From an uncultured virus (IMG/VR IMGVR_UViG_3300042197_003096) (lineage: Duplodnaviria; Heunggongvirae; Uroviricota; Caudoviricetes), in the IMG/VR virus record IMGVR_UViG_3300042197_003096: a DNA stretch of 20,000 nt, one strand, 5' to 3'. How positions within the stretch are numbered: position 1 is the stretch's first letter; each line of letters starts with the position of its first letter. Shown piece by piece: positions 2 through 19,824 of the stretch. Under the pieces are notes generated by a model, which made no database searches, had not been told where the DNA came from, and saw only the letters and a list, made by a program, of their open reading frames with translations. Made by a program: the position numbers and the translations under genes.

Positions 2-1276
2 TCTCCCAGCATCTTCAAAAAAACTGTGGGTGTGATAGGAGAAGTTTTCAGCACCGGACTTTATCACCACGGAGACAGTTCAATGTCTCAAGCCATTTCT
101 AAACTTGCTAGACCTTTTGCTTGTTCTGATCAAATTTTATTAGGTGACGGATTTTTTGGAACACCAGTAAATCCTGCACCATCAGCACCAAGATACACAC
201 AGGTCAAGATCTCTCAAAAATACAAGGAGATCATCGAGAAATACAAGGACCTGAATATACCTAACGAAGAAGGTGGATTCGATTGGATCCACGTAGATTA
301 TCCAGTTGGTATCTCCACTCACATAGTGGGAATCGCAGTTGGATACAAATCAAATATCCTACCGAGAAAACCCGAAGATATAGTCAAATACTTAGAGGGT
401 GACAGGGGTAAAAAATTAAAACCTTTTTTCAGGGGATTCAAGGGAAAAATTTCTAGGGTGGATTCTTTGAAGTGTGCTTGGATGATAGAGGGTGAAACTG
501 AAGTTGATCTCGTAACGAGAACAGTAAAAATCAATTCCATTTCACCACTCCAGAGGTACGAATCATTTTTCACCCGTCTAAATTCTCTCCTGGAAAGATC
601 TCTTCTAAATTATAAGATGGACAACTTCTCCACCGACGAGGTTAAGATCTCAATCAAATTTAGGTGTTCAGATTTAGAGTTTAAGGAGATAAGTGATAAA
701 ATCCTAAAAGAGACAAAGCAGATAGTCACGGAAAATATCGTTTTTGTCAAAGATGGATCTGTTTTAGAATACGACGAGTTGGAAGAATACCTTGATGACT
801 TCTTGGTACACAGAGAAAATAATATTCTGAAAAGATTTCAGAAAGATCTGGAATACCTTGAATTTGATCTTGAATATCTAGAAGCCAAGTTGAAATTTCT
901 TCTTTTCATGTCAGAGAAGAAAAGAACTGCAGAAGAAGTGGAAAAATTTCTTTCCGAATACAAAAAAGAGATCTCTAGAAAATTAGAAGCAATCTCTTTG
1001 ACTAGGCTTACTAAGGAGGAAATTAATCGCACCAAAGAGGAAATAATTCAATGTAAAGCTGCTATAAAAGATAAGAATGCACAAATCAAAAAGCAAACCA
1101 TCAGATTCAAAGAGGTCCAAAAGGAAAATTCTTCTAAATCTAAAAAGGGAAAGAAAACAACTTCTCTTTTAGAAACTAGTCCAGCAGAAGAATATCACAA
1201 TGGAATTAGAATTTGGAACCCTGAAGAGGAAATACTTGAAGAAGAAAAACAAGAAGAACAAATAGAAAATGAGTAA
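2..1276 (+). CDS. Type IIA DNA topoisomerase, breakage-reunion subunit (GyrA/ParC/T4 gp52-like); 5'-truncated by the window edge
   Basis: Frame is open from nt 2 (SPSIFKKTVGVIGE...). Motifs YHHGDSS, GDGFFG and SAPRYT (catalytic Tyr) match the GyrA/gp52 active site. No C-terminal beta-pinwheel; ends in a charged tail, as in T4 gp52-type subunits. Confidence 0.93.
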   Translation, partial: SPSIFKKTVGVIGEVFSTGLYHHGDSSMSQAISKLARPFACSDQILLGDGFFGTPVNPAPSAPRYTQVKISQKYKEIIEKYKDLNIPNEEGGFDWIHVDYPVGISTHIVGIAVGYKSNILPRKPEDIVKYLEGDRGKKLKPFFRGFKGKISRVDSLKCAWMIEGETEVDLVTRTVKINSISPLQRYESFFTRLNSLLERSLLNYKMDNFSTDEVKISIKFRCSDLEFKEISDKILKETKQIVTENIVFVKDGSVLEYDELEEYLDDFLVHRENNILKRFQKDLEYLEFDLEYLEAKLKFLLFMSEKKRTAEEVEKFLSEYKKEISRKLEAISLTRLTKEEINRTKEEIIQCKAAIKDKNAQIKKQTIRFKEVQKENSSKSKKGKKTTSLLETSPAEEYHNGIRIWNPEEEILEEEKQEEQIENE

Positions 1277-2036
1277 AAAATCACAAACCTGGAATCTTAG
1301 AATTATTAATTCTGGAAACTTTATTTCTTTCCTAAAGAAATTGAAATTGGTAGACAAGAGTGTACCTCTTGAACTTGAAGGAGATCAGCTTTTCGCTAAA
1401 GTACGTACACCTGACAAATCTGTTATAAAATTTGTTGGTGTGGATGTATCGGAAGTTCTCGAAGGTGACATTCCTCCGCAAAGACTAAAGATAGGGATTT
1501 TAGAAATCGGTAAACTTATCGATGTTTTCAAACATTTTGGTCCAGAGGAAGAAGTCACACTAATAATTGATTCACAGCCATATGATGGGGGATTTATCGC
1601 TACAAGTATAAAATTCTCTTCTCCTTCTTTGAATATCTTCATTAAGTGTGCAGACATTAGCCTGCTTGCTTATATTGATGACAACATCCAAAGGGGAATT
1701 CACTCCACTGAAGGATCTGAAATTAATTTTTCAATCACCCGTGAATCTTTCCAAAAGATTTCTTCTTTGACTGGGATAGAATCAAATGCGGAAGAACTTT
1801 TAAATCTAGACGTTCATGAAACTGGAGTAACGGTAAGAGGAAATTCTTTTCACTTCCATATCATTAGGGGTTCAAAGGTTCAAGGTTTTACAGAACCTAA
1901 GGTTTTCACCATATACAAAAATCAGTTCTCTTATATCGATCAAGAGGCTTCTGAAATTCATTTTCATGAAAATAGGATCGTTGTTAAATCCACCGAATCA
2001 GATTCTATTATAGCAATAGGTCTTGTTGAAATTTAA
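1269..2036 (+). CDS. Probable DNA polymerase sliding clamp (gp45/PCNA-like)
   Basis: 255 aa with an alternating beta/alpha two-domain pattern typical of clamps. Lies between topoisomerase and polymerase with overlapping/abutting ends. Inferred from size, pattern and context. Confidence 0.65.
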   Translation: MSKKSQTWNLRIINSGNFISFLKKLKLVDKSVPLELEGDQLFAKVRTPDKSVIKFVGVDVSEVLEGDIPPQRLKIGILEIGKLIDVFKHFGPEEEVTLIIDSQPYDGGFIATSIKFSSPSLNIFIKCADISLLAYIDDNIQRGIHSTEGSEINFSITRESFQKISSLTGIESNAEELLNLDVHETGVTVRGNSFHFHIIRGSKVQGFTEPKVFTIYKNQFSYIDQEASEIHFHENRIVVKSTESDSIIAIGLVEI

Positions 2037-2037
2037 T

Positions 2038-3210
2038 ATGACAGAAGAAACAGATTACAGTTCATTATCGATCGAGGAACTAAATAAGAGACTCTCAGAG
2101 TTACAGAAAAAATCATCCGATTACTATAATCAGGAGCAAGGTATTAAATTAACTCTAAACAGTATCTACGGAGCCCTCGGGAACCAATGGTTTGCCTGCT
2201 TTAATCCTGATGTTGCTGAGAGTGTAACTCTACAGGGGCAGGACATCTGGAGGTTTGCTGAAAAAATCATCAATCGGTACTTTAATGATATGTGGCACCA
2301 AGACACCGAGCTCCACGAAAAGATGGGAGTTAGGAATGTCAGAAAGTTAAATATGGATTTAATTATCTACGGTGACACAGACTCGAATTACATCAACCTC
2401 GGAGCCGTTATGGATTCCTGTGAGTTTGATTACGAGCCTTTTGAGTTCGTGAAAAAACTCAACGAGTTTAGACTCAAAGAGTACATTAAAAAGTGCTACG
2501 ATATTTACTCCACTAAATGGGGGACAGACAACTACCAAGATTTTGAATTGGAAAGCCTTTCATATTCAGGAATATTTTTAGGAAAGAAAAAATACGTTCT
2601 TGACATTGCCTGGCAAGATCCAAACAAGGATATGTTTCCCAAGCTTTCTAAAATAAAATCTACAGGTATAGAGTTGGCCCAAGGAGGCACTGCTCCTTTT
2701 GCAAGGGAAAAACTGACCTTCTTACTTAGACACATTTTTGATCGGGGTAAAAGTTTTGATATCAGGGAGTTTGTAAAGATCCTGAAAGAGATCAAAAATG
2801 AATTCAAAGTACAGAACCCGGACCAGGTGGCAGTGGGAACAGCAGTTAACAACATAGAAAAATTTATCATTAACGATACAAACAAATTCGAAGTTGCAAA
2901 AGGGTGTCCAATGCACGTTAGAGCTGCTGGATACCATAACTACCTTCTGAACAACTCAAAGTATAAAGCCAAATACAGCCTTATAAGATCTTCGGAGAAA
3001 ATCAAATACTATTTTGTTAAAGTCAAGAATGAACAAGAAAATAACGTCTTTGGTTATCTGAACGGTTCTTATCCTTACGAAATAGCACCACCGATAGATT
3101 ACGATGAACAATTTAATAGAGTGATCCTAGATCCAATTAACAGATTCGTGGAATCTATGGGATACACTCCACTTTCTCCAAATCTCCTCCTGGTAAGATC
3201 TCTTTTCTAA
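2038..3210 (+). CDS. Family B DNA polymerase, C-terminal subunit (split polymerase, gp43B-like)
   Basis: Motif B (KLTLNSIYG), motif C (YGDTDS), KKKY and K-x-x-G-I-E thumb motifs are present; exonuclease domain and motif A are absent. ATG at 2038 chosen over the upstream TTG. Confidence 0.92.
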   Translation: MTEETDYSSLSIEELNKRLSELQKKSSDYYNQEQGIKLTLNSIYGALGNQWFACFNPDVAESVTLQGQDIWRFAEKIINRYFNDMWHQDTELHEKMGVRNVRKLNMDLIIYGDTDSNYINLGAVMDSCEFDYEPFEFVKKLNEFRLKEYIKKCYDIYSTKWGTDNYQDFELESLSYSGIFLGKKKYVLDIAWQDPNKDMFPKLSKIKSTGIELAQGGTAPFAREKLTFLLRHIFDRGKSFDIREFVKILKEIKNEFKVQNPDQVAVGTAVNNIEKFIINDTNKFEVAKGCPMHVRAAGYHNYLLNNSKYKAKYSLIRSSEKIKYYFVKVKNEQENNVFGYLNGSYPYEIAPPIDYDEQFNRVILDPINRFVESMGYTPLSPNLLLVRSLF

Positions 3211-3728: not shown

Positions 3729-4067
3729 ATGTCTCTGAATAAACGTTACTTCTCTTGGGATTCGATTTTGGAAAAGGCTTCCCAATCTGATTTTACAGCC
3801 TTTGAATCTTGGTTGATTAAACCAGACGTCAAATTTTACGAAGATGAAATGTCAGCTTATTACGCTGACATTTTTTCTGCATGTCCAGAAAATCACATGA
3901 AAATTATTTTTGAACACACAACGGAAGGTCCGGTATTTCTCGAGGATCTTTTCAAATTAATTGCCGTTGTTACTCACAAGGAAAATAAAGAACACCATCT
4001 TCCCTTCGTAAACCAATACAAAGAATTATGGAGAAAGAAGTGGGAAATGGATATTGAAATAAATTAA
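3729..4067 (+). CDS. Hypothetical protein
   Basis: 112-aa ORF, ATG start behind a promoter motif, fills the gap in a co-directional gene run. Confidence 0.75.
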   Translation: MSLNKRYFSWDSILEKASQSDFTAFESWLIKPDVKFYEDEMSAYYADIFSACPENHMKIIFEHTTEGPVFLEDLFKLIAVVTHKENKEHHLPFVNQYKELWRKKWEMDIEIN

Positions 4068-4077
4068 TCTAAACAAA

Positions 4078-4344
4078 ATGGAAAATTTTGAAAGACCAAT
4101 AAAAGTTGATTTGAGTCAAACACCTTGGATCAAATGTGACGGAGGAAATATGGTATGGGAGTCAGGAATGCTTTTCAAGAAACTATCCCCTCTCGTTAGC
4201 CCAACAGGGAAAGAAGAGCTTATCCCCGCAGAAGTGGTAATCTGTAAAACGTGTGGTAAAATCCCTAAATTTTTCTGGGAAAAAGCTAAGGAAATCCCGG
4301 AAGAGCTTAAATCCACTTGCGAAAAATCTTCGATTATCTCCTAA
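4078..4344 (+). CDS. Small Zn-ribbon-like hypothetical protein
   Basis: IKCDGG...LSPLVSPTGKE...ICKTCGKIP; one complete CxxC and one degenerate knuckle; A-rich start context. Confidence 0.7.
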   Translation: MENFERPIKVDLSQTPWIKCDGGNMVWESGMLFKKLSPLVSPTGKEELIPAEVVICKTCGKIPKFFWEKAKEIPEELKSTCEKSSIIS

Positions 4345-4373
4345 AAACATTTTTTTATTTGAGATTTTTCTAA

Positions 4374-4381
4374 TACCTTTG
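4374..4381 (+). promoter_or_regulatory. Bacteroidota sigma-A -7 element (TAnnTTTG)
   Basis: TACCTTTG, 6 nt before ATG 4388, with TTTG at 4358-4361 upstream. Confidence 0.55.
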
Positions 4382-4387
4382 TCCTCT

Positions 4388-5074
4388 ATGAAATATTTAT
4401 CGATTGATTTAGAAACGACAGGGTTGGATCCTCAAAATCACGAGATCCTGACCTTTTCTGCAATTCTAGAGGACACTGAAAAGAAACTCCCGTTCGAAGA
4501 CTGCCCCAAATTAAATGTTTATATTTTAAGGGGAGAAGTCTCGGGTAGCATTTTTGCACTAAGTATGAACTCAAAAATTCTCTCTTCGATTGCCAGATAT
4601 TCTGGTTTGAAAACTGTCGAAGAAAGAGCAGGGCTAAGGAAATCCTTAAACGCTGTGTTTTTGGACAAGAGATCACTTCCCTACTATTTTTATGCCTGGT
4701 GTTTGAAGCATCTTGAAGGTAAAGATGTCGGTGAAGAAATTTTAGATCCTGTTAATTGGGAAGACCCAATAAAACCCTTCAAAGAAGTTTCAGTATTAAA
4801 AACTCTGAATGGTATTGTTTGGGTCAACGGAGCCGGTAAAAACTTTGGAACATTTGACAAAAGATTTATAGATGCCTACCCCGAATTCGGTGACTTTGTC
4901 AGATTTAAACAAAGAGTATTGGATCCGAGTATTCTCTATGTTGATTGGAAAAATGACAGAAGCTGCCCGGATCTAACGACGTGTAAAGAAAGAGCTGGGT
5001 TAGATCCTTTTGTATCCCACGACTCTCTCGAAGACGCATGGGACGTTGTTGAACTTCTTAGAAAATTTTACTGA
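4388..5074 (+). CDS. DEDDh 3'-5' exonuclease (oligoribonuclease/DnaQ-like)
   Basis: ExoI DLETTG, ExoII GKNFGTFD, ExoIII HDSLEDAWD. Start at ATG 4388; the upstream extension overlaps the previous gene. Confidence 0.88.
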   Translation: MKYLSIDLETTGLDPQNHEILTFSAILEDTEKKLPFEDCPKLNVYILRGEVSGSIFALSMNSKILSSIARYSGLKTVEERAGLRKSLNAVFLDKRSLPYYFYAWCLKHLEGKDVGEEILDPVNWEDPIKPFKEVSVLKTLNGIVWVNGAGKNFGTFDKRFIDAYPEFGDFVRFKQRVLDPSILYVDWKNDRSCPDLTTCKERAGLDPFVSHDSLEDAWDVVELLRKFY

Positions 5075-5075
5075 T

Positions 5076-5495
5076 ATGGACAAAATACTGTACATCGTGA
5101 GAGGATTGCCCGGATCCGGTAAATCAACATTTGCTAAAAAATTGGTGGGTGAAGATTTTCTTGTTTGTGAGGCAGACAAGTATTTTATAGATAAGGAAAC
5201 AGGAGAATATAAATTTGATCCTTTTCAATTAAAAGCAGCGCACAAAGCTTGTCAGGACACAGTGGAAACATACATGAAAGACAGTCTGATCAACGACCAG
5301 TTTTACCGACAGATAGCTGTCTCAAACACATTCACACAGGAATGGGAAATGAAGCCATATTTTGAATTGGCCGAGAAGTATGGTTACTCAGTTTTTTGTG
5401 TCGTTGTGGAAAACAGGCACCAAGGACAAAACGTGCATGGTGTGCCTTCCGAGAAGATTCTACAAATGAAAGAAAGGTTCGAATTCAGCCTTTAA
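5076..5495 (+). CDS. P-loop kinase, AAA_33 / polynucleotide-kinase-like (N4BP2-type)
   Basis: Walker A RGLPGSGKST, EADKYF, VSNTFTQEWEM, N.HGVP. ATG 5076 directly follows the exonuclease stop. Confidence 0.88.
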   Translation: MDKILYIVRGLPGSGKSTFAKKLVGEDFLVCEADKYFIDKETGEYKFDPFQLKAAHKACQDTVETYMKDSLINDQFYRQIAVSNTFTQEWEMKPYFELAEKYGYSVFCVVVENRHQGQNVHGVPSEKILQMKERFEFSL

Positions 5496-5501
5496 TTCCA
5501 A

Positions 5502-5535
5502 GAAACTTCCCTTCGATCCCCTGGTAGAATATATA
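5502..5535 (+). promoter_or_regulatory. Tandem promoter motifs upstream of clpP (GAAACTT-N16-TAGAAT overlapping AATATATA)
   Basis: GAAACTT 5502-5508, TAGAAT 5525-5530, AATATATA 5528-5535. Confidence 0.55.
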
Positions 5536-5551
5536 AAGGAAAAGGAAAGAC

Positions 5552-6280
5552 ATGGGGAAAAGACCAAAGAATTTCGACTCAGTCTGGAGCTGGTTCGACC
5601 ATAATGTGGACCTAGAATCTAGAACTATTTACATGGGCAGTATCTCCAGTGACTATGAAAATAATGAATCCGGTGTGGATCATTTGATGGCAGAGTATAT
5701 CATCAAGGGTATTCATCTTTTAGAAGAAAGATCCGAAGAGGAGATACTAATCCTTATGAATAATCCAGGCGGAGATTGGTATCATGGTTTGGCAATCTAT
5801 GATGCTGTAAAATATTCATCTTGTCATTGCAGAATAAAGGTGTACGGGCACGCAATGAGTATGGGAAGTTTAATCTTACAAGCAGCTGATTCTAGGATTA
5901 TGATGCCAAACAGTAAATTCATGATCCATTACGGGTATAACGGAACAGTCGGACATTCTAAAACCTTTGAAAGGACTGCTGACGAGGGTAAGAGAATCAA
6001 CTACCAGATGGAGAACATTTATCTGGACGAAATAATGGAAAAGGAAGAGGAAGAAGGACACGGACATATCGCCAAGGTTCTTTCTAAAATTATGAATAGA
6101 CTTAGATCTTTCGAATTAAATCCCACCTTAGCTTCCTATAAATTTTCCAAACACCAAGAATCAAAAAAGGAAGAGATTAGAGCAGTTTTAAAAGAAATGC
6201 TTAATTTTGATACATATTTGGATGCACAAGAAACAGTAGATCTGGGATTAGCAGATTTCGTTTTTGGTGAGGAAGAATAA
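5552..6280 (+). CDS. clpP: ClpP-family serine protease with a ~45-aa insertion
   Basis: MNNPGGD..HGLAIYD, catalytic Ser in AMSMGS, His in PNSKFMIH, Asp in FDTYLDAQETVDLGLAD. Confidence 0.92.
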   Translation: MGKRPKNFDSVWSWFDHNVDLESRTIYMGSISSDYENNESGVDHLMAEYIIKGIHLLEERSEEEILILMNNPGGDWYHGLAIYDAVKYSSCHCRIKVYGHAMSMGSLILQAADSRIMMPNSKFMIHYGYNGTVGHSKTFERTADEGKRINYQMENIYLDEIMEKEEEEGHGHIAKVLSKIMNRLRSFELNPTLASYKFSKHQESKKEEIRAVLKEMLNFDTYLDAQETVDLGLADFVFGEEE

Positions 6281-6289
6281 ATATAACAC

Positions 6290-6764
6290 GGGCCATACGG
6301 GAATCGATTGGCAACGAAGTTCTTTGACGTGATGCAGGCAGTGTTAGATGGAAACACTTTAATCCCCTATCAAAACAATAACCGGCAACTCTTATGTTTC
6401 CGCTGAGGGAGACCTCGTACTTGATGGCCTAGCTATCGAGTTTGCTGAACCTGCAATGGCAGCCTAAGCACCGGGCGGCAACTGCCCGGATTAAACAAAG
6501 TTGCAAGCGGCAAGAAAAAAGGTTCGTAGTATTGCCTTTGAACGTTGAGTGGAACCTTGAGATCACATCAATACCCATTAAGATCGGCACTATCGATGTT
6601 CGGGAAATTTGGATCATATCCGGAGAGTAACCCTGACTGAGCGTTAAGTCTGAAAGAAAAAAGAAACGCACCAAAGTTTGTTGATGTCAATAAATCAACT
6701 AAGCCTGTGAAAGAACGCATTTAGCTTGTTGAGCAAGACGGGGGTTCAACTCCCCCATGGTCCA
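6290..6764 (+). ncRNA. ssrA: tmRNA (one-piece, ~475 nt)
   Basis: Acceptor stem GGGCCAT (6290-6296) pairs with ATGGTCC (6757-6763), with a G3.U wobble (Ala identity) and discriminator A6764. T-arm GGGGG-TTCAACT-CCCCC. P2 pairings GTTCTTT/AAAGAAC and GCAGGC/GCCTGT. PK1 AGTGTT/AACACT with loop GATGG/CTATC. Second pseudoknot CCGGGC/GCCCGG with GCAACT/AGTTGC. Internal tag frame ends AA-stop. Confidence 0.96.
6384..6467 (+). other. tmRNA tag reading frame: (A)GNSYVSAEGDLVLDGLAIEFAEPAMAA*
   Basis: Resume context AATAACC|GGC has U at -5 and A at -4, just after PK1; 27 codons end GCA GCC TAA. Confidence 0.85.
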
Positions 6765-6769
6765 CTAAG

Positions 6770-6791
6770 AAAGTCCTTCGGGACTTTTTTT
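6770..6791 (+). terminator. Intrinsic terminator after tmRNA
   Basis: AAAGTCC-TTCG-GGACTTT followed by a T-run; C(UUCG)G tetraloop. Confidence 0.9.
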
Positions 6792-6825
6792 GTGGGATTT
6801 GATTTTTTATAATGTAGATTTTTCT

Positions 6826-6833
6826 TATTTTTG
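6826..6833 (+). promoter_or_regulatory. Bacteroidota sigma-A -7 element (TAnnTTTG)
   Basis: TATTTTTG between the terminator and ATG 6853; heads a run of small co-transcribed ORFs. Confidence 0.5.
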
Positions 6834-6852
6834 TGTGTGATAAAAAAGAAAG

Positions 6853-7215
6853 ATGGAAGATTTTGAAAAAACTCCAGGAATAACTTACGTGGTTCATTTC
6901 AAAAAATACACACACGATGTGTATATAGGAAGACCCTCGAAATGGGCTAATCCTTTTACACACAAAAAATTGACCAAGACCCGGGCAGAATCTCAAGTGG
7001 CTTCAAGACAAGAAGCAATCGAGAGGTTCGAGGAACATTTACATTCCTCCGGACTAATAAACGAGATCGAAGAATTAAGAGGCAAAGTTCTGGGATGCTG
7101 GTGTTGTAATAAGCCGTCAGACGGCTCAGAAAAGACTTTCCTTTGTCATGGTCAAGTCATAGCAAAATATCTTAATAGCGGACTTAAAAACAAACAAAAA
7201 CAGTTGATATTATGA
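6853..7215 (+). CDS. DUF4326-family protein
   Basis: DVYIGRPSKWANPF ... ELRGKVLGCWC ... CHGQVI signature. Confidence 0.88.
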   Translation: MEDFEKTPGITYVVHFKKYTHDVYIGRPSKWANPFTHKKLTKTRAESQVASRQEAIERFEEHLHSSGLINEIEELRGKVLGCWCCNKPSDGSEKTFLCHGQVIAKYLNSGLKNKQKQLIL

Positions 7216-7604
7216 CATCATCTAACGTCATCGAGTATTCCATCTTTAAAGGAGAGGAAGAGGTAGGGAGACACCGCCAAAACATCATGTGTAAAACATG
7301 TAACGACGGCCTTGAAAAATTTCATCCCGCCAAGGATTATACCATCCAAGCATGGGGATATGACTGCGAGGGAGAGGTTTGGGAAGGCGACAAGAGAGAA
7401 AACCTAGAAGAATGGTTGGCCAAGCATCCTGCGGAATTCACTCACAAAAGGTTTGAAGAAGGCGAAACAGTCAGGCTAACAAAGAAAAGGGGAATGGCCA
7501 CAATTCTTGAATCCAGAAAGGGTAAATTTATGCCAGAGTACAAAGTCCATGTCATCGGAGGGGAAATTCTAGACGGCATACAACAAGGAGAAATTATACC
7601 ATAA
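7212..7604 (+). CDS. Hypothetical protein
   Basis: 130 aa, ATGA overlap with the previous gene; CKTC motif; small beta-rich C-terminal part. Confidence 0.75.
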   Translation: MTSSNVIEYSIFKGEEEVGRHRQNIMCKTCNDGLEKFHPAKDYTIQAWGYDCEGEVWEGDKRENLEEWLAKHPAEFTHKRFEEGETVRLTKKRGMATILESRKGKFMPEYKVHVIGGEILDGIQQGEIIP

Positions 7605-7605
7605 C

Positions 7606-7818
7606 ATGGACAAGGAAATTAGATTAAAACATTTGAATGAGGAATGGGCAGAAATCTGTAAGCAGATGCAGATTCTTCAAAGAAGGAGAGTACAGATTTA
7701 CAAAGAGATCGAAGAGATCACTCCAGGAGAAACGGTTTTAAAAATTGAAAGGTCTCCGAGCATTTATTTTGACTTACAAAACCAAGATATTGACCAATTT
7801 AAAGAAGAAAGAATATGA
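7606..7818 (+). CDS. Hypothetical small coiled-coil protein
   Basis: 70 aa, abuts both neighbours (1-nt gap and ATGA overlap). Confidence 0.7.
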   Translation: MDKEIRLKHLNEEWAEICKQMQILQRRRVQIYKEIEEITPGETVLKIERSPSIYFDLQNQDIDQFKEERI

Positions 7819-8057
7819 GTAGATACGTAATAAATTTAGGAGAAAACAAAGAGTTCGTTTATGGCTGGGACCATGCCCTTGGGTATTTTTATGAGCTCTG
7901 GGACAATAACATTTCAGACAAGGAAGAACTTTGTCTCCTAGCTGAAAGATGTTCTTTATTTGACCGAATGCCCAGTTATGAAATAATAGAGCAGATGGAA
8001 AAGTATGGTGCTAAAAAGGAACACGTTGAATCTGTTGCTTCGGACTTACCCTTCTAA
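7815..8057 (+). CDS. Hypothetical phage protein (YGWDHALGYF motif)
   Basis: 80 aa, ATGA-coupled to the previous ORF. Confidence 0.75.
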   Translation: MSRYVINLGENKEFVYGWDHALGYFYELWDNNISDKEELCLLAERCSLFDRMPSYEIIEQMEKYGAKKEHVESVASDLPF

Positions 8058-8061
8058 AAAT

Positions 8062-8340
8062 ATGAAGAATAAAATGTATTTAGTTAGGTATTGCGGAGGC
8101 AGTTATGAAGACTATTATAGTTCTGTTATATTTGCTACCGCAAAAAAATCAACAGCAACAAAATATGTTTCGAAATTTAACAGGATCTTAAAAAAGTGGA
8201 AAAAACACTACTCCCAGTTTGAGTGTGACGAAATGGGATTTAAGTGGATAAAAGAGGAACACATCAAACAACACTTTAATAGATGGAATAGCCTTCGAGA
8301 CATAACGAGGTGTTACTACGAGGAGGTAGAAGTTAGATGA
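8062..8340 (+). CDS. Hypothetical phage protein
   Basis: ATG at 8062 just after the previous stop; MYLVRYCGGSYEDYY...YEEVEV pattern typical of small phage proteins. Confidence 0.72.
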   Translation: MKNKMYLVRYCGGSYEDYYSSVIFATAKKSTATKYVSKFNRILKKWKKHYSQFECDEMGFKWIKEEHIKQHFNRWNSLRDITRCYYEEVEVR

Positions 8341-8591
8341 TTATGAAAATAAAAGCAATCTATATTAAGAACTTAAAAATGAGTGAAGGTAAAATTGCTG
8401 CACAGGTTGCACACGCCGTCAAGAATTTAGGAGTAACCCCTATCGATTGTGATATAATTGTATTAGGTGTTTCCACCACTAAATTCAACGAATTAATAAA
8501 ACAACATGATTGTTATGTCCAAAAAGATAAAGGTTTAACAGAGGTAGAAAGCGGAACAGCAACAGCAGCAGCTTGGATAGAAGTTCAGTAG
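8337..8591 (+). CDS. Peptidyl-tRNA hydrolase Pth2-like, minimal form
   Basis: LKMSEGKIAAQVAHA and DKGLTEVESGTAT match the Pth2 signatures (L.MS.GK.AAQ..HA; DAG.TE...GT.T); only 84 aa. Confidence 0.85.
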   Translation: MIMKIKAIYIKNLKMSEGKIAAQVAHAVKNLGVTPIDCDIIVLGVSTTKFNELIKQHDCYVQKDKGLTEVESGTATAAAWIEVQ

Positions 8592-8637
8592 AATCATTTC
8601 ATGTAAAAAATTTACATCTGACTTTCAATAAAATCCA

Positions 8638-9075
8638 TTACAATTTTTCTACTTCGAAAGAGAATTCTCTTGGCTCGTCTGGATTGAACGTGGATTGAGA
8701 GTATTCAAAATTTGACACTATCAATTCACAAAATTTATTTAGGATTTCTTCTTCTGTTATTTCTAGGTTTGTCTCTTCCAAAAGCCCTCTTATATTAAGC
8801 TTATACTCACAGAGCATTCCTAAATTGTATAAAAATTCTGAGTATTCATAAGAATCGTCCGAGGGAGTCGGAGGATCTTTAAAAATGGAGGTTAAAAAAT
8901 CCCAAAGAATTTCTTCCCAGTCTTCTTCATCCACAGTAAAATATCCCGATTGGTCCCACTCTTGAAAAACGATATTATAAATAAGATCGGTTCTAGATCC
9001 ACCTTTTATGTCTAATGTGAAAACTAATTCCCCTTCTTCGTCATCTGTGAAAAAATCTACCTTGTATTCTGTCAT
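8638..9075 (-). CDS. Hypothetical acidic protein
   Basis: 145 aa, strongly acidic, start overlaps the stop of the upstream minus-strand gene. Confidence 0.75.
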   Translation of the reverse strand: MTEYKVDFFTDDEEGELVFTLDIKGGSRTDLIYNIVFQEWDQSGYFTVDEEDWEEILWDFLTSIFKDPPTPSDDSYEYSEFLYNLGMLCEYKLNIRGLLEETNLEITEEEILNKFCELIVSNFEYSQSTFNPDEPREFSFEVEKL

Positions 9076-9680
9076 TATTTCTTTATTAGATACCCAGAAA
9101 GAATTGCGACTAACTCCGTAATGTCTTCTTTGATGTCTTCTGTCACTTCTATTCGAGTTTTAACCGTGTGAAATTGTAAAAATCCAATTAACTGCCCTGA
9201 AATAGTTCTGATCGGTGCTGTAGAAATTTGTAAAATTCCTTCTTGAGTCACTCTTTCTCTTAAATAATCCAAAACCGGATCGTTAGCATCCACACTAAAA
9301 AAATCATTCTCGCTCAGATGTTTCATTAACGACGGATGCTCTGTTACAAAAACACTTTGATTGTGTTCTTTAACTTTTGAAACCCCCGAAGCAGTTGTCT
9401 CAAACGTCTGTGAGTATTTTTTCATAGGAACGCCATGAAAAAATTTTCCACCGTTATGGAACTGGAAGATCCCTATTCTATCTAGATTCCATTTCTTTCT
9501 GAATTCCTCTAGAAAGTTTTGGATCTCTATCATGTTGTCCACATCCTTTTCTGAAATTCTCTCGTGATCTTCTTCGTCGAAAGCTTTTTTTCTAGTGTCT
9601 AAAAAGTGTTTGAGCCAAACTGAACCTAGTGCCACAGCCAAAGAAAATAAACCGGTAATAATTATTTGTAAAAGCTCCAT
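9075..9680 (-). CDS. Single-TM protein with GAF-like soluble domain; possible T4 T-like holin
   Basis: N-terminal hydrophobic helix (IIITGLFSLAVALGSVWL), then DRIGIFQFHNGG...APIRTISGQLIGFLQF with GAF-like topology. The holin role is an inference from architecture. Confidence 0.5.
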   Translation of the reverse strand: MELLQIIITGLFSLAVALGSVWLKHFLDTRKKAFDEEDHERISEKDVDNMIEIQNFLEEFRKKWNLDRIGIFQFHNGGKFFHGVPMKKYSQTFETTASGVSKVKEHNQSVFVTEHPSLMKHLSENDFFSVDANDPVLDYLRERVTQEGILQISTAPIRTISGQLIGFLQFHTVKTRIEVTEDIKEDITELVAILSGYLIKK

Positions 9681-9706
9681 CTTTGTCTTAGCCCCCTTTT
9701 TTTTAA

Positions 9707-10297
9707 TTAAATTCCGAATCTTCCCATAACTTGAGAACCTTTGATTAGTTTGTCGTCCTTAAGGCTGGGTGGAATAGTTTTAAATTTGGAAACTAAAGTT
9801 GGCTCCTTTTTAAGTTTTCTGATGATGAGGTCCTTGTAAGATTCTGGGCTATAAACTTCTTCTTCTCCGATCGGGGCACCTTCCATTTTCATCACGTATT
9901 TCACTAAGAAATTCATTTTATAAAGATAATCCTCGACAGTCATACAAGATCTTCTAAGGTCCGTGTTCAAACGAGGAAACTCCGAAGATTTTGATGGACC
10001 GGTAACCACTCTGATAGAACCGTTGTGTTGAATATTGTACTGGGGATATCCAGATTTTGGGCTTCTCATGCTCTCGTGTTTGAAAGCAATGTTTCCTAGC
10101 CTATCTTTGAAATATCTTTGTTCTTCTGGACCGCTCTTTTCGATACCAATGGGATTTTCTGCAATCATTTCTGACCATCCCATCCCGTTCATATCTTTGT
10201 AAATTTCAGATTCCCTAATGGGCTGAAAACTTAGAACTGGACATTTTTTGGGTCTTCTAACCTCGGTGACACTTCTAAAATTTTTGTATGATTTCAT
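9707..10297 (-). CDS. Hypothetical protein, putative head-internal protein
   Basis: ATG 10297 (MKSYKNFRSVTE) downstream of AATATATA (10326-10319); C-terminus KGSQVMGRFGI. Confidence 0.75.
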   Translation of the reverse strand: MKSYKNFRSVTEVRRPKKCPVLSFQPIRESEIYKDMNGMGWSEMIAENPIGIEKSGPEEQRYFKDRLGNIAFKHESMRSPKSGYPQYNIQHNGSIRVVTGPSKSSEFPRLNTDLRRSCMTVEDYLYKMNFLVKYVMKMEGAPIGEEEVYSPESYKDLIIRKLKKEPTLVSKFKTIPPSLKDDKLIKGSQVMGRFGI

Positions 10298-10366
10298 ATC
10301 TTTTGGAGTATTTGTCTCTATATATTCAAACACTTCGCGGACTCCCGAGATTTTTATAAATACTGT

Positions 10367-10395
10367 GAAATTTTTCTATTTATTGTCAGTATATG
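10367..10395 (+). promoter_or_regulatory. GAAATTT-N16-TATATG promoter motif variant
   Basis: Same spacing as the other GAAACTT-N16-TATAA copies; points at a mini-ORF/hairpin and terminator. Confidence 0.45.
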
Positions 10396-10397
10396 TG

Positions 10398-10451
10398 ATG
10401 TCATCGCAACAGTTAAATCTTTGGCTGTTGTTCCTTATATTCCCCTTTTAA
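10398..10451 (+). other. Candidate 17-aa hydrophobic peptide MSSQQLNLWLLFLIFPF, or small RNA
   Basis: ATG 2 nt after the -10-like hexamer; stop merges into a terminator; internal hairpin GCAACAGTTA/TGGCTGTTGT. Confidence 0.35.
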
Positions 10452-10477
10452 CCCGATTCTTAGGAATCGGGTTTTTT
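10450..10477 (+). terminator. Intrinsic terminator
   Basis: AACCCGATTC-TTAG-GAATCGGGTT, perfect 10-bp stem followed by TTTT. Confidence 0.85.
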
Positions 10478-10494
10478 GTTTGGAGAATCTTCTA

Positions 10495-10502
10495 TATGTT
10501 TG
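10495..10502 (+). promoter_or_regulatory. Bacteroidota sigma-A -7 element (TAnnTTTG)
   Basis: TATGTTTG followed by CAAC-ATG (10507); TTTG copies at 10475 and 10479. Confidence 0.6.
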
Positions 10503-10506
10503 CAAC

Positions 10507-11040
10507 ATGAAACACATAAATTTTCTGCACATCATAGAAAACCTTTCTGTACCCCGGTCAGTTTTGGATAGGTACGAGAAGTTGAAGGCTCTTAGAGAAA
10601 GGCCGGACTTCCACCCGGAAGAAAGTGCGTTTGAGCACATCAAGATAGTTACCGATCGGCTGATCCAGACAGGAGACCCAGATCTCATTGTTGCTGGTAT
10701 GCTTCACGATCTTTTTAAATGTGATACAGCTCAAATTAATCCTAAAACCGGATATCCAACTTGTCCAGGACATGATGTTGCTGTAGCGAGCTTTATAAGA
10801 CGTGACGAAGAGGTTCAACAGTGGATCTCGTCAATGGGAGCGGATGTTCAAATGGTGGAGAACCTTTGCAAGGACCACATGAGATTCCATCAATTTGGAC
10901 AGATGGGAGGGGTAAAGCAAAAAGAGTTTACGAGTAGGCCACACTGGAAAAAGCTAGAAGTCCTGGGTGCGGCAGATAACATGCTAGAAGATTTTGATTT
11001 AGATCACCTTGAAAAATCATGGAAATGGAAAAGAAAGTGA
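10507..11040 (+). CDS. HD-domain phosphohydrolase (similar to the HD module of CCA-adding/HD-Pnk end-healing enzymes)
   Basis: RPDFHPEESAFEH, AGMLHDLFK, PGHD, HM.FH and AAD motifs; overlaps the RNA ligase start. Confidence 0.8.
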   Translation: MKHINFLHIIENLSVPRSVLDRYEKLKALRERPDFHPEESAFEHIKIVTDRLIQTGDPDLIVAGMLHDLFKCDTAQINPKTGYPTCPGHDVAVASFIRRDEEVQQWISSMGADVQMVENLCKDHMRFHQFGQMGGVKQKEFTSRPHWKKLEVLGAADNMLEDFDLDHLEKSWKWKRK

Positions 11041-12122
11041 AATATGACATTGAAACATTAGAGAGGTACCACAAAGAGGGGCTTTTAGAAAAAAATGAGC
11101 ACCCTTCTTTACCTTTGATTATTTGGAATTATTCCAGGGAATGCCAATACGAGGGCAAGTGGGACGAGATCACCCTTAACATGCGAGGAACGATCACCGA
11201 TAGGGAGGGAAATTTAGTGGCTTCAGCTTTTCAAAAATTCTTCAATTATGAAGAGGTGGCAGACAAAGTGCCAACCACAGGGGACTATGTTTATGTTCAG
11301 GAAAAAATGGATGGATCTCTGGGAATTCTTTTTTGGTACGAAGGGGAATGGCATCTAGCTACCAAAGGCTCTTTCACTTCCGAGCAAGCAAAAAAAGGAA
11401 TGGAGATTCTTAAGAAGAAATATACTCTTGATGCCTTTCCGCATAAACACGTCACATACCTGTGTGAAATAATTTACCCGGATAATCGGATCGTGGTTTG
11501 CTATGAAGGGGAAGAAAAAATCGTATTCATTGGTGCAACCACAGGAGGAGAAGAACTGCACTGGACCACTGCTGAAATGATTTTCAAAGGATCTGGAATT
11601 AAATCAAAAGATATAGTTAAGACCGAGCAGCATTTTCAATTTGATAAATCCCTTTACAAAAGACTGAAAGAACTGAACACCGAAAACTCCGAAGGTTTTG
11701 TCCTGAGGTTCCAACCTGGTAATTTCAGAATGAAAATTAAATTCGAGGAATACATCAGATTGCATTCTTTATTAACCTCTTTTTCTAATCTTGACATTTG
11801 GAGATTTCTAATGAGCGGTAAAGACCCAGAAGAACTTCTGGTCAGAGTCCCCGATGAGTTTGATTTGTGGGTAAAAGAAAACTTAGCTTCTCTAAAACAA
11901 CACTACTCTCTAGTCGAGGACGAAGCCAAAAAAATCTTCGAAACGGTAACCAGGGAAAATCTCTCCAGAAAAGAAATAGCAGAGATACTTAGAAGAACGG
12001 TAAACAAAACTGCAATGGCTATTGTTTTCAGTATGTTGGACGGTAGAGATTATTCCGAAATCATTTGGAGATCAATACGTCCTAAATACCAAAAACCCTT
12101 CTGGCAAAGGAAAGACGATTAA
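11019..12122 (+). CDS. T4 Rnl1-family RNA ligase
   Basis: RG..D..G...A..F.KFFNY, motif I EKMDGSL, ATKGSF, CEII, motif IV EGFVL, motif V MKIKFEEY. Confidence 0.93.
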   Translation: MEMEKKVKYDIETLERYHKEGLLEKNEHPSLPLIIWNYSRECQYEGKWDEITLNMRGTITDREGNLVASAFQKFFNYEEVADKVPTTGDYVYVQEKMDGSLGILFWYEGEWHLATKGSFTSEQAKKGMEILKKKYTLDAFPHKHVTYLCEIIYPDNRIVVCYEGEEKIVFIGATTGGEELHWTTAEMIFKGSGIKSKDIVKTEQHFQFDKSLYKRLKELNTENSEGFVLRFQPGNFRMKIKFEEYIRLHSLLTSFSNLDIWRFLMSGKDPEELLVRVPDEFDLWVKENLASLKQHYSLVEDEAKKIFETVTRENLSRKEIAEILRRTVNKTAMAIVFSMLDGRDYSEIIWRSIRPKYQKPFWQRKDD

Positions 12123-12127
12123 TCTGT

Positions 12128-12155
12128 GTAACTTCTTGGAATTTTGGGATATAAT
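12128..12155 (+). promoter_or_regulatory. GTAACTT-N15-TATAAT promoter motif variant
   Basis: Intergenic, 7 nt before ATG 12163. Confidence 0.5.
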
Positions 12156-12162
12156 ATCTTGA

Positions 12163-13146
12163 ATGTCTCAAAAAGAAATAGAAGAAAAATTCACAGAATT
12201 TCAAGAGTATTTCAATCAAAAGGGATTAACCTCTAATATCTCCAGAAAGTTTCTTGTTCCCTTTAAATCACACGTTGAAGAAAATCCAAGATCCTTTTTA
12301 AAGTTTTGGAATTTTATTAAATCTCTTTGGCCTTTGGATATGAGGGAAAAGATAAACAAGCTCAATAGTGTTAACGAAAAAAGTCCTTTTTTTAAAACAT
12401 TCTTTTTTGTCGCTGATTGGAGTCATTCATATTTAGGTCCGGCAGAAATTCTTTTTCTTCTTGTTGTACAAGATAGTCGTTCAGGAAGGAAAAGATTTCC
12501 AGATCTTGTCTTTGAAAACTCTACGGACAGAATAGAAATCAAATCCTACGAAGGAAATTTTAGGCTGACCGAATCAACTTTCTTCTTTACTGATTTAGGA
12601 ACAATAATTCAAGCACTGGTTCAGGGTGGATTTATGTTAAGCCTCACCGATATTAACAACAACGATCTTAGAAAAGGAATCAGGCAATTCTGCGAAAGTT
12701 TTTTATGTAAAAGAGGATTTATAGAATTGAATTCTAGGATATGGAAACTGGAATCTAAAACGGATGACACTATGGTTTTTAAAATCAGTCCAGAAACGTC
12801 TAGGGAGATAGTTAAATATTCTATAGTTAGAAACTCCCTGAGAAATTGGCTTAGTAGAGGAACTCTCAGTATAAAACTTGGTGAAATAATTGATCCGACT
12901 AGGGTTTCTAGGATCTCAAAAAAAGAATTACAGGATTATGTCAAATGTTTATTAGGAATGGAAGACAGAGCTCCAATTCCTCTTGAACAATATTTCAGTC
13001 TTTGTGAAATAAGTTCTTTGGTCTTATACGAAAAGAAAAATAAAAGAGAGAAATTCCAATTAGTCCTGTTTGATGATCTGAAAAATTTCTCTATAGATAG
13101 GATAGGACAATCTAAAGTTTCTTATAAAAAGAAGATAAGATCTTAA
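12163..13146 (+). CDS. Putative PD-(D/E)xK nuclease-fold protein
   Basis: Helix GPAEIL, then FPDL and IEIKS, spaced like a PD-(D/E)xK core. Confidence 0.55.
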   Translation: MSQKEIEEKFTEFQEYFNQKGLTSNISRKFLVPFKSHVEENPRSFLKFWNFIKSLWPLDMREKINKLNSVNEKSPFFKTFFFVADWSHSYLGPAEILFLLVVQDSRSGRKRFPDLVFENSTDRIEIKSYEGNFRLTESTFFFTDLGTIIQALVQGGFMLSLTDINNNDLRKGIRQFCESFLCKRGFIELNSRIWKLESKTDDTMVFKISPETSREIVKYSIVRNSLRNWLSRGTLSIKLGEIIDPTRVSRISKKELQDYVKCLLGMEDRAPIPLEQYFSLCEISSLVLYEKKNKREKFQLVLFDDLKNFSIDRIGQSKVSYKKKIRS

Positions 13147-18895: not shown

Positions 18896-19354
18896 TTAAG
18901 AATTGGATTCGTTTGACCGCGGCTCTGAAAAAATTCCCTCTTTGATCATTTTATTCAGAAGTCTCTTGTTATCTATTCCTGGGATCTCAGAGTGTTTCCA
19001 AGATATAAATCCTCCAAATCTGACTCCTCCCTCGTTTTCAAATTGGACCCCTGGATCAACACTCGGAACACCGAATATCTCGACTTCTCCAAAATTTTGA
19101 AATTTTACACCTTTGGAAATCACTTTCACATCAGATATAAAAACATCACCGGAGTTGGCGAAAACCGTGCCCGGTGGTAGGTATTTTATCCCACCCAGGT
19201 CCACATATCCCATGTTTCTAAATTCTACACCAGGAGGAATTTCAGAAGTGTAAAAATTAAAAAATTTGTCATGTGATATAATAATCCTATCTCCTATGAT
19301 CGTGTATTCATATCTGAGGTCACTGAGTTCTTGTAGAAAAAATTCTCTTGTCAT
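18896..19354 (-). CDS. 20-aa-repeat (LRR/beta-solenoid-like) protein, diverged paralog
   Basis: Repeats of the form IPPGVEFRNMGYVDL; shares N-terminus (MT.E.F...L....Y.Y.I.GD.I...H) and C-terminus (G.DNKRLLN.MIK) with the next gene. Confidence 0.8.
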   Translation of the reverse strand: MTREFFLQELSDLRYEYTIIGDRIIISHDKFFNFYTSEIPPGVEFRNMGYVDLGGIKYLPPGTVFANSGDVFISDVKVISKGVKFQNFGEVEIFGVPSVDPGVQFENEGGVRFGGFISWKHSEIPGIDNKRLLNKMIKEGIFSEPRSNESNS

Positions 19355-19800
19355 ATAAATAACTCTTTTTTAATCATCAGATTCAACAACCTCTTGTTGT
19401 CGACTCCTTCTATCCTTATTCCTTTATTATCCTCCACCCAACCTAAACCCAAACTAGTCAAAATGACATCCCCACCGTTCTTAAAATGGAAATCAGGAGG
19501 AAGGGTCTGGAGGCTCCTCAAATTGACCAACCCACTATTCTTAAATTGGACACCAGGAGGAAGGGTCTGGAGGCTCCTCAAATTGACCCACCCCTTGTTC
19601 TTAAACTCCACACCAGGAGGAAGGGTCTTGAGGTCCATCAACCAGACATACCCCTTGTTCTTAAACTCCACACCAGGTGGAAGGGTCTGGAGGCTATTCA
19701 AATCGACACCCCCTCGATGTGTCACCAGGATCTTGTCACCCTTGATCTCGTAGGAATATCCTTTCTCTTCTAATACCCCAATAAATTCTTCTTGTGTCAT
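19351..19800 (-). CDS. 20-aa-repeat (LRR-like) protein
   Basis: Four copies of V.L.SLQTLPPGV.FKN.G.; ATG 19800 just after GATATATA (19813-19806). Confidence 0.85.
   Translation of the reverse strand: MTQEEFIGVLEEKGYSYEIKGDKILVTHRGGVDLNSLQTLPPGVEFKNKGYVWLMDLKTLPPGVEFKNKGWVNLRSLQTLPPGVQFKNSGLVNLRSLQTLPPDFHFKNGGDVILTSLGLGWVEDNKGIRIEGVDNKRLLNLMIKKELFI
19471..19710. repeat. Intragenic 60-bp tandem repeat x4
   Basis: AAGGGTCT recurs at 19501, 19561, 19621 and 19681; 19501-19528 is identical to 19561-19588 and 19591-19617 is identical to 19651-19677. Confidence 0.95.
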
Positions 19801-19824
19801 ACTCTTATATATCATTTAGATACC

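Follow-up and report, generated by a model that had tools for sequence, protein, structure and literature searches.

A 20,000-nucleotide stretch of DNA from an uncultured virus of the Caudoviricetes (IMG/VR record IMGVR_UViG_3300042197_003096), referred to here as the window, carries between positions 4388 and 12122 an array of genes predicted to repair RNA, rescue stalled ribosomes and degrade proteins. A preliminary description of the window had named seven elements in this array, a transfer-messenger RNA (tmRNA), a ClpP-family protease, a PTH2-type peptidyl-tRNA hydrolase, a kinase, an HD phosphoesterase, an Rnl1-family RNA ligase and an exonuclease, and all seven were found at or near where it had placed them, within 8 kb. 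The features are as follows:

4388-5074, plus strand: DEDDh 3'-5' exonuclease of 228 amino acids, called from weak family matches and three Exo motifs
5076-5495, plus strand: stand-alone P-loop polynucleotide-kinase-like protein of 139 amino acids from ATG 5076, called from Pfam and PHROG matches and motifs
5552-6280, plus strand: ClpP-family serine protease of 242 amino acids, called from PF00574 and the catalytic triad
6290-6767, plus strand: tmRNA gene of 478 nucleotides, called from Rfam RF00023
6384-6467, plus strand: tmRNA tag reading frame, called from its conservation in related tmRNAs
6770-6793, plus strand: terminator-like hairpin and T run, read from the sequence
8337-8591, plus strand: miniature PTH2-type peptidyl-tRNA hydrolase of 84 amino acids, called from PF01981 and the fold
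10507-11040, plus strand: stand-alone HD-domain phosphoesterase of 177 amino acids from ATG 10507, called from its metal ligands and structural model
11019-12122, plus strand: Rnl1-family ATP-dependent RNA ligase of 367 amino acids, called from PF09511 and alignment to T4 Rnl1

The window DNA recurs in freshwater and aquaculture metagenomes from several studies, and a megablast search with positions 4000-12500 against cultured phages returned no match and thus no near cultured relative. The array is preceded by replication genes, identified with Pfam and PHROG as a topoisomerase II subunit and a split family-B DNA polymerase (PolB). Between its parts lie a DUF4326 gene, nine open reading frames (ORFs) that could be assigned to no family, and an opposite-strand cassette of three genes. 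The same layout is found in the syntenic relatives G001 and G002, neither of which is independent of the window. A consensus promoter scan gave a background result, with 30 sites seen and 24.6 expected.

The kinase, phosphoesterase and ligase belong to a triad whose members are firmly linked: many phages keep them as gene neighbours. The kinase ORF is open from a TTG at 5010, and its likely start is the ATG at 5076, one base past the exonuclease stop. It matches Pfam AAA_33 (4.9e-11), the PHROG family phrog_2071 (2.5e-40) and the polynucleotide-kinase family phrog_505 (1.6e-7), and its P-loop, the Asp of its EAD-x-YF motif and its SNTF and ENRH motifs are conserved. The protein stands alone (139-161 amino acids), with no fused phosphatase domain, and it weakly matches solved Pnkp kinase domains in a single-sequence PDB search, a kind of search that was uninformative for the kinase, the HD protein and the exonuclease. 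The kinase and Rnl1 match opposite ends of one fused kinase-ligase family, phrog_8238. The kinase family is present in 623 cultured phage records, often beside Rnl1; in Aeromonas phage 2L372X, for instance, a calcineurin-like metallophosphoesterase, Rnl1 and the kinase follow one another as overlapping ORFs. A survey of 80 IMG/VR loci anchored on relatives of the kinase found a metallophosphoesterase in 57, Rnl1 in 33 and cRec in 10, with median distances from the kinase of 822 bases for the metallophosphoesterase and 1414 bases for Rnl1. Where both flanks were fully available (33 loci), the metallophosphoesterase was present in 25 and Rnl1 in 20. Other ligase families also occur near the kinase, as on contig L189.

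The HD ORF is open from 10480, its likely start is the ATG at 10507, and its last 22 bases, up to 11040, are shared with the start of Rnl1, a slot that the metallophosphoesterase occupies in 2L372X. Although the single-sequence Pfam HD match (PF01966; 20.6 bits) is just below the cut-off of 22, the metal ligands H53, H76-D77, H98, H133 and D166 and the HPE motif at 45-47 are invariant in 41 of 41 HD sequences. A profile of the protein hits an A-adding enzyme in the region that bears its HD domain (E 0.0034), and NCBIfam models of CCA enzymes match as well. The structural model, with a predicted local distance difference test score (pLDDT) of 94.4, aligns to PhnZ with Z 13.1 (root-mean-square deviation [rmsd] 3.1, 133 residues aligned) and, over the whole model, to the A-adding enzyme 3wfo with Z 12.0 (rmsd 4.0, 162 aligned); among structural matches that span the full length, the HD-bearing part of this tRNA A-adding enzyme ranks first. 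At E <= 0.001, Foldseek returned nothing for the HD protein. Cyclic-phosphodiesterase and phosphatase activities have been reported for the HD domain of CCA enzymes. By analogy with the CCA-adding and A-adding enzymes, and from its overlap with Rnl1, the HD protein may act on 2',3'-cyclic phosphates or 3' phosphates at RNA ends.

The ligase matches PF09511 (1.2e-16; 61.7 bits against a cut-off of 28.3) and phrog_562 (1.2e-59), and it aligns to the T4 Rnl1 structure 2c5u (7.5e-10) through its KxDG (EKMDGS), EGFV and KIK motifs. Its score of 59.7 lies below the NCBIfam equivalog cut-off of 242.25 for T4 RnlA, which makes it a distant member of the family. The set for healing (kinase and HD protein) and sealing (Rnl1) that the preliminary description had recognized is therefore borne out by family matches, by motifs and by the recurrent kinase-phosphoesterase-Rnl1 neighbourhood.

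The protease and the tmRNA are immediate neighbours. The ClpP-family ORF matches PF00574 with 6.7e-28 (98.2 bits against a cut-off of 20.2) and solved ClpP structures, and its triad S103/H126/D220 is invariant in all 11 aligned sequences, canonical phage ClpPs among them. The window ClpP, which carries an insertion of about 40 residues, is, as judged from its sequence, a member of a divergent phage subfamily. Of seven contigs searched in which ClpP shares 55% or more identity with that of the window, five yielded a tmRNA, against none of the five with 44-47% identity; these counts are confounded by relatedness. In seven distant loci, the ClpP gene has as neighbours a helicase, RecA, a sigma factor, Thg1, a DNA ligase or a second ClpP. 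One distant phage carries two tandem ClpP genes (L018 9971-11264), recalling ClpP1/ClpP2 pairs, and another has the tRNA-His guanylyltransferase Thg1 3.6 kb upstream of a ClpP-like gene (L015 5527-6348).

The tmRNA gene scores 55.3 bits against Rfam RF00023 over model positions 1-374, above the gathering score of 47, whereas ARAGORN found neither a tRNA nor a tmRNA in the window. A blastn search of the window tmRNA against cultured phages gave no match. Relatives yielded seven further phage tmRNAs, and the comparisons that follow cover eight sequences, the window's included. The window tmRNA has a fully paired acceptor stem (7/7) with G3:U70 and a fully paired T-stem (5/5); G3:U70 and a fully paired acceptor stem are common to all eight tmRNAs, with compensatory changes at positions 4-7. 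G3:U70 is the identity element for alanine. The 3' end of the gene reads ACTA, and CCA, which is encoded in two of the eight, is absent from it, so that 3' trimming and CCA addition would be needed. Two candidate tag frames are present in the window, of which solely the one that resumes at GGC 6384-6386 is conserved in relatives; it runs for 27 codons (GNSYVSAEGDLVLDGLAIEFAEPAMAA), ends MAA and stops at TAA 6465-6467. In this GGC/GAC-resume frame, the tags end MAA, LAA, VAA or IAA in all eight tmRNAs, and the ARAGORN calls in G006 and L189 use the same frame. The other frame, from GCA (ATLMF...LMA), was rejected, as it is not conserved in relatives.

The tmRNA starts 9 bases past the clpP stop, and the spacing is conserved at 9, 25 and 27 bases in three genomes, being about 25 bases in G001 and G002. 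Directly 3' of the tmRNA lies the hairpin AAAGTCC TTCG GGACTTT followed by a T run, which the consensus scan did not list. Metatranscriptome contigs of 429, 381 and 338 nucleotides from three studies fall wholly inside the tmRNA with 6-9 differences, and a 365-nucleotide contig from a fourth study falls inside clpP. The tmRNA-only contigs fit a stable, expressed RNA, whose ends such contigs cannot reveal. SmpB is not among the ORFs of the window in a Pfam scan limited to the window; SmpB (PF01668) is present in G002, G004 and G005 and was not seen in the fragments G001 and G003.

Just two of the eight tmRNAs detected by Rfam in this phage group (those of G004 and G006) were found by ARAGORN, which missed those of the window, G001, G002, G005, G009 and G010. 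Phage surveys based on ARAGORN may consequently undercount long variants (440-484 nucleotides). ARAGORN, which misses the window tmRNA, is the tool used in three papers on phage tmRNAs (PMC7162821, PMC9004378, PMC12484599).

The small PTH2 is the last gene of a six-ORF single-strand run at 6853-8591. It scores 29.2 bits against PF01981 (cut-off 23), and its N-terminal GK...Q..HA and C-terminal D.G.T motifs, both with catalytic roles in PTH2 enzymes, align to solved Pth2 chains. All 25 PTH2 sequences compared share K19, Q23, H26, D64, G66 and T74, and T68 is conserved in at least 90%. The structural model has a pLDDT of 91.3; its best 11 Foldseek rows are all PTH2/Bit1 chains, with a best template-modelling score of 0.77, to 3erj. 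Score, motifs and fold together confirm the Pth2 call of the preliminary description. The protein misses the NCBIfam equivalog cut-offs by far (34.6 against 126 for Pth2 and 29.5 against 82 for arch_pth2), and its family comprises 461 clusters of about 82 amino acids, with members in Vibrio phage ICP1 and Aeromonas phages as well. The first gene downstream of the tmRNA terminator, at 6853-7215, encodes DUF4326 and is kept in G001, G002 and G003. DUF4326 is predicted by Iyer et al. (2021; PMC7824862) to connect NAD/ADP-ribose systems with DNA modification.

The exonuclease, assigned to the RNase T/DnaQ superfamily, heads the kinase-ClpP-tmRNA run. It scores 21.6 bits against Pfam RNase_T, below the cut-off of 24, and matches phrog_192 with 7.8e-14; the Exo motifs D-x-E, N-x3-F-D and H-x4-D are conserved in five of five orthologues. 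RNA and DNA substrates are not separated by sequence alone. A role as the PolB proofreader was set aside, as a separate ORF with the PolB exonuclease domain exists in all five relatives and the gene at 4388-5074 is thus not needed for proofreading.

Links between RNA repair and the other genes recur in phages with a different gene order. In the distant jumbo relatives G004 (99% complete) and G005 (100% complete), whose replication genes are 44-60% identical to those of the window, a cluster consists of Rnl1, a metallophosphoesterase, the kinase, two ORFs of unknown function, cRec, one further such ORF and a canonical ClpP. This ClpP is 27% identical to the window ClpP, and two different ClpPs therefore sit beside one kinase family. 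In G004, a Pol-beta nucleotidyltransferase precedes the repair cluster and a small PTH2 lies 5 kb upstream; in both phages, SmpB is about 10-11 kb from the repair cluster and the tmRNA is 56-80 kb away. The link of ClpP to RNA repair is thus recurrent but lineage-bound. G003 is a close relative of the window (PolB part 85% identical) in which the segment from DUF4326 to orf180 is inverted. At the syntenic sites it is without the exonuclease-kinase-ClpP-tmRNA block at one breakpoint and without HD, and it retains a 24-codon Rnl1 remnant; as its contig overlaps G002 solely at G002 120-190 kb, the absence of SmpB, PTH2, cRec and the metallophosphoesterase there is uninformative.

Three further observations were made in these genomes. 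A DUF6717 gene immediately precedes the small PTH2 in G004 (L019 4857-5198) and adjoins SmpB in G002 (58555-58905), which makes DUF6717 a candidate ribosome-rescue-associated protein. A virus-only protein of 152 amino acids, with no family in Pfam, PHROG or Atlas, is encoded between cRec and ClpP in G004 (L019 13988-14446) and G005 and adjoins a full-length PTH2 in G002 (23035-23496). On the 238-kb phage contig L189 (2814-14040), a tmRNA (tag DVELSTMTFEDVMSFVGADYAIAA), 24 tRNA genes and PhoH lie in 20 kb together with a run of metallophosphoesterase, kinase and RNA ligase (PF09414 type); this stretch is a second, differently built translation-repair island.

From the family memberships, intact catalytic motifs, tag frame, gene order and its recurrence, we propose, with a probability of roughly 0.6, that a large freshwater phage carries the array as an accessory island, in which three separable modules lie side by side and act on a damaged translation apparatus. 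We infer their substrates, co-transcription and cooperation as follows. In the first module, 2',3'-cyclic or 3' phosphates would be opened or taken off by the HD phosphoesterase and 5'-OH ends phosphorylated by the P-loop kinase, and Rnl1 would rejoin the cut strand, the likeliest targets being the anticodon loops of tRNAs. In the second, clpP is followed after 9 bases by the tmRNA and then by the terminator, and the two are therefore probably on one transcript, from which processing of the tRNA type may release the tmRNA. This RNA would accept alanine, as G3:U70 suggests, and together with SmpB, which is phage-encoded in relatives, would rescue ribosomes stalled on broken mRNAs. The 27-residue tag ending MAA would then mark the product for Clp-type degradation, for which an unfoldase would be required, presumably the host ClpX or ClpA. 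In the third, the miniature PTH2 would free tRNA from dropped-off peptidyl-tRNA.

A number of observations weigh against this proposal. The linkage comparisons amount to two or three independent events, and in the 80 kinase loci a tmRNA was found once, the exonuclease once, the small Pth2 and a window-type HD never, and ClpP six times, always in the G004/G005-like clade. The seven-part toolkit put forward in the preliminary description accordingly does not stand as a conserved unit; co-occurrence with the kinase holds for the phosphoesterase and Rnl1, and tmRNA, exonuclease, Pth2 and ClpP are rarely near. The closest kinases (74-79% identical; L140-L146) are without Rnl1 within their seven loci of 6.9-20.4 kb, one of these loci (L145) having a metallophosphoesterase match, and the two that were scanned, L141 and L143, adjoin a GMP-reductase-like gene, L143 also an Hsp70 gene. 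As G002 has a metallophosphoesterase and cRec elsewhere, HD may be an addition rather than a replacement. The window ClpP scores 81.3 bits against an NCBIfam cut-off of 249 for true ClpP and slightly better, yet again below the cut-off, against the ClpP-related head-maturation model (91.3 against 120), and no Clp-type unfoldase (AAA_2 family) was found in the five relatives. The tmRNA adjoins a window-type ClpP in two of 18 ClpP-anchored loci, both from the syntenic relatives, and otherwise lies 16-50 kb from it. No RNA contig spans the ClpP-tmRNA junction or extends beyond 6749, and RNA libraries may contain DNA. No PTH2 was found in G001, G003 and G005, of which G005 is complete. Finally, G003 is 51% complete and overlaps G002 over about 70 kb only, so that the genes missing from it may be unsequenced.

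Some of this evidence would agree with neighbours brought together by chance in a plastic early-gene region, in which ClpP would serve capsid maturation, the exonuclease would act on DNA, Rnl1 would attach tail fibres as T4 gp63 and the kinase would act on nucleotides. The head-maturation model is the first in rank for the window ClpP in NCBIfam, and most of the PHROG families matched are named 'head maturation protease'; the exonuclease family is labelled as a DNA-polymerase exonuclease subunit in phrog_192 and in a Cobetia phage record; phrog_562 bears the double name of T4 gp63; the closest kinases are without Rnl1 within their loci of 6.9-20.4 kb, and in the two scanned loci lie beside a nucleotide-metabolism gene; and the region is rearranged between relatives. 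A prohead protease was nevertheless rejected on context, since no portal or capsid gene lies near ClpP in the seven distant loci, and the separately encoded PolB exonuclease domain, the strong conservation of the kinase-phosphoesterase-ligase triad, the overlap of HD with Rnl1 and the abutting of ClpP and tmRNA in three genomes likewise speak against an assembly of this kind, which we consider very doubtful.

A rival explanation is that of the preliminary description. All seven elements might constitute one integrated counter-defence kit, selected for survival of ribonuclease-type host immunity, such as anticodon nucleases, toxin RNases and Cas13 or type III collateral cleavage. T4 Pnkp and Rnl1 reverse the damage done by PrrC, and tmRNA relieves mRNA cleavage of the RelE/MazF type in E. 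coli. The window offers a candidate gene for each post-cleavage step within 8 kb; RNA repair, ClpP and PTH2 are close together in two lineages of different gene order; and both blocks are jointly missing in G003. As G001-G005 carry 0-2 tRNA genes, tRNA repair rather than replacement would be their route. The same logic has been argued for RNA repair and PTH2 in jumbo phages (Iyer et al., 2021; PMC7824862), and a counter-defence purpose, already proposed in print for these phages, is plausible for the window. That the seven form a single kit is unlikely, however: they are not together outside the lineage, DUF4326, the family-less ORFs and the opposite-strand cassette split them, and the lineage comparisons are few.

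General upkeep of translation is a further explanation, either as rescue and quality control during long infections of slow-growing freshwater hosts or as a cleanup after the phage's own shut-off nucleases have broken host mRNAs. The freshwater and aquaculture origin of the window DNA suits it, and a tmRNA occurs with a window-type ClpP in phages without RNA repair (G006, G009 and G010). Huge phages commonly carry tmRNA, SmpB and release or recycling factors, which are read as translation support in one survey (PMC7162821), and in the Melnitz paper (PMC9004378) a phage tmRNA is suggested to maintain the machinery that the phage has hijacked or to recycle proteins of the host. This explanation is compatible with the defence reading rather than exclusive of it, but it leaves both the presence of ClpP inside RNA-repair clusters, in two arrangements, and the joint absence of both blocks from G003 unexplained, and we regard it as somewhat unlikely.

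Within the proposed island, proteolysis might form the third arm of a phage response to RNA damage, in which breaks are healed, sealed and their products cleared. The tmRNA would be made from the tail of the clpP message, its unusually long, phage-specific tag would be added to proteins from ribosomes that cut tRNAs or mRNAs have stalled, and the phage ClpP with a host unfoldase would provide a private disposal route for these products. Such a route would explain why two unrelated ClpPs are found beside RNA-repair genes in two lineages, and it is offered here as a speculation that is quite unlikely. The usual interpretation of phage ClpPs is as proteases of the capsid or as peptidases directed against the host. 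Should the links hold, a function in ribosome rescue would be added for these genes, and phage tmRNAs would have a defined downstream partner. The swap of HD for a metallophosphoesterase would add an end-healing enzyme type seldom seen in phages.

Other features of the window and its relatives lie outside these modules. Two strong hairpins at 10406-10473 on the plus strand, the second of them (10450-10473) followed by a T run, occupy part of the 170 bases that separate the HD gene from the divergent orf208. Upstream of them there is no plus-strand gene, and they may represent a small RNA, a leader or a bidirectional terminator. On the minus strand at 18896-19815, orf152 and orf154 are mutual paralogues, whose family forms tandem arrays in G002 (134233-135838) and G003 (140789-141647). 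The family-B DNA polymerase is split (window 1269-3210), and its exonuclease domain is the distant separate ORF found in the five relatives. In G003 (118803-121656), a stretch of about 1.7 kb, which may be an intron, an intein or a homing-endonuclease insertion, further divides the polymerase part between query residues 121 and 120.

Compared with known systems, the window resembles T4 Pnkp plus Rnl1 and bacterial Pnkp in having a 5'-kinase, a 3'-end phosphoesterase and an Rnl1-family ligase. T4 Pnkp is a fused protein, whereas the window encodes three separate proteins. The phosphoesterase of the window is of the HD type found in CCA-adding and A-adding enzymes, while that of T4 is of the HAD type and those of bacterial Pnkp, G004/G005 and 2L372X are calcineurin-like. 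Unlike in T4 and bacterial Pnkp, the kinase lies 5 kb from HD-Rnl1, in a putative other transcription unit with ClpP and tmRNA. The small PTH2 shares its fold and both conserved motifs with archaeal and eukaryotic PTH2 (Pth2/Bit1), and with 84 residues, against about 115-120 in those enzymes, it is a phage-specific short form.

Like bacterial and other phage tmRNAs, that of the window is a one-piece molecule with a tRNA-like domain, G3:U70 and a pseudoknot region, and its tag closes with hydrophobic-Ala-Ala. Unlike the RF00023 model with its 374 positions, it is 478 nucleotides long, and its tag has 27 residues (23-33 in most relatives). It also differs from bacterial trans-translation, in which tmRNA acts with SmpB and ClpXP degrades the tagged proteins, in that CCA is not encoded, the gene lies behind clpP rather than near smpB and no phage unfoldase was found in relatives. 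Phage G also carries ClpP, ClpX and tmRNA (PMC12484599). A clpP-tmRNA unit, or ClpP in RNA-repair clusters, was not found described in those parts of the phage tmRNA, ClpP and SmpB literature that were searched, where supplementary tables may list such genes.

The closest precedent is the analysis of jumbo phages by Iyer et al. (2021; PMC7824862, section 3.4.9), which describes Rnl1/Rnl2, polynucleotide kinases, phosphoesterases, cRec, an RlaP nucleotidyltransferase and PTH2 for jammed ribosomes, the phosphoesterases being HAD proteins and rarely, in a few phages, calcineurin-like or HD proteins. The window has the same cast and logic, and G004/G005 have cRec and a Pol-beta nucleotidyltransferase next to Rnl1 as in those sets. 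That paper has 0 occurrences of tmRNA and treats phage ClpP as a likely anti-host peptidase rather than as part of rescue. Unlike in those sets, ClpP abuts the tmRNA in the window and closes the repair cluster in G004/G005. To this published jumbo-phage idea the window adds two new variations, namely the joining of ClpP with the tmRNA in one unit and the substitution by HD.

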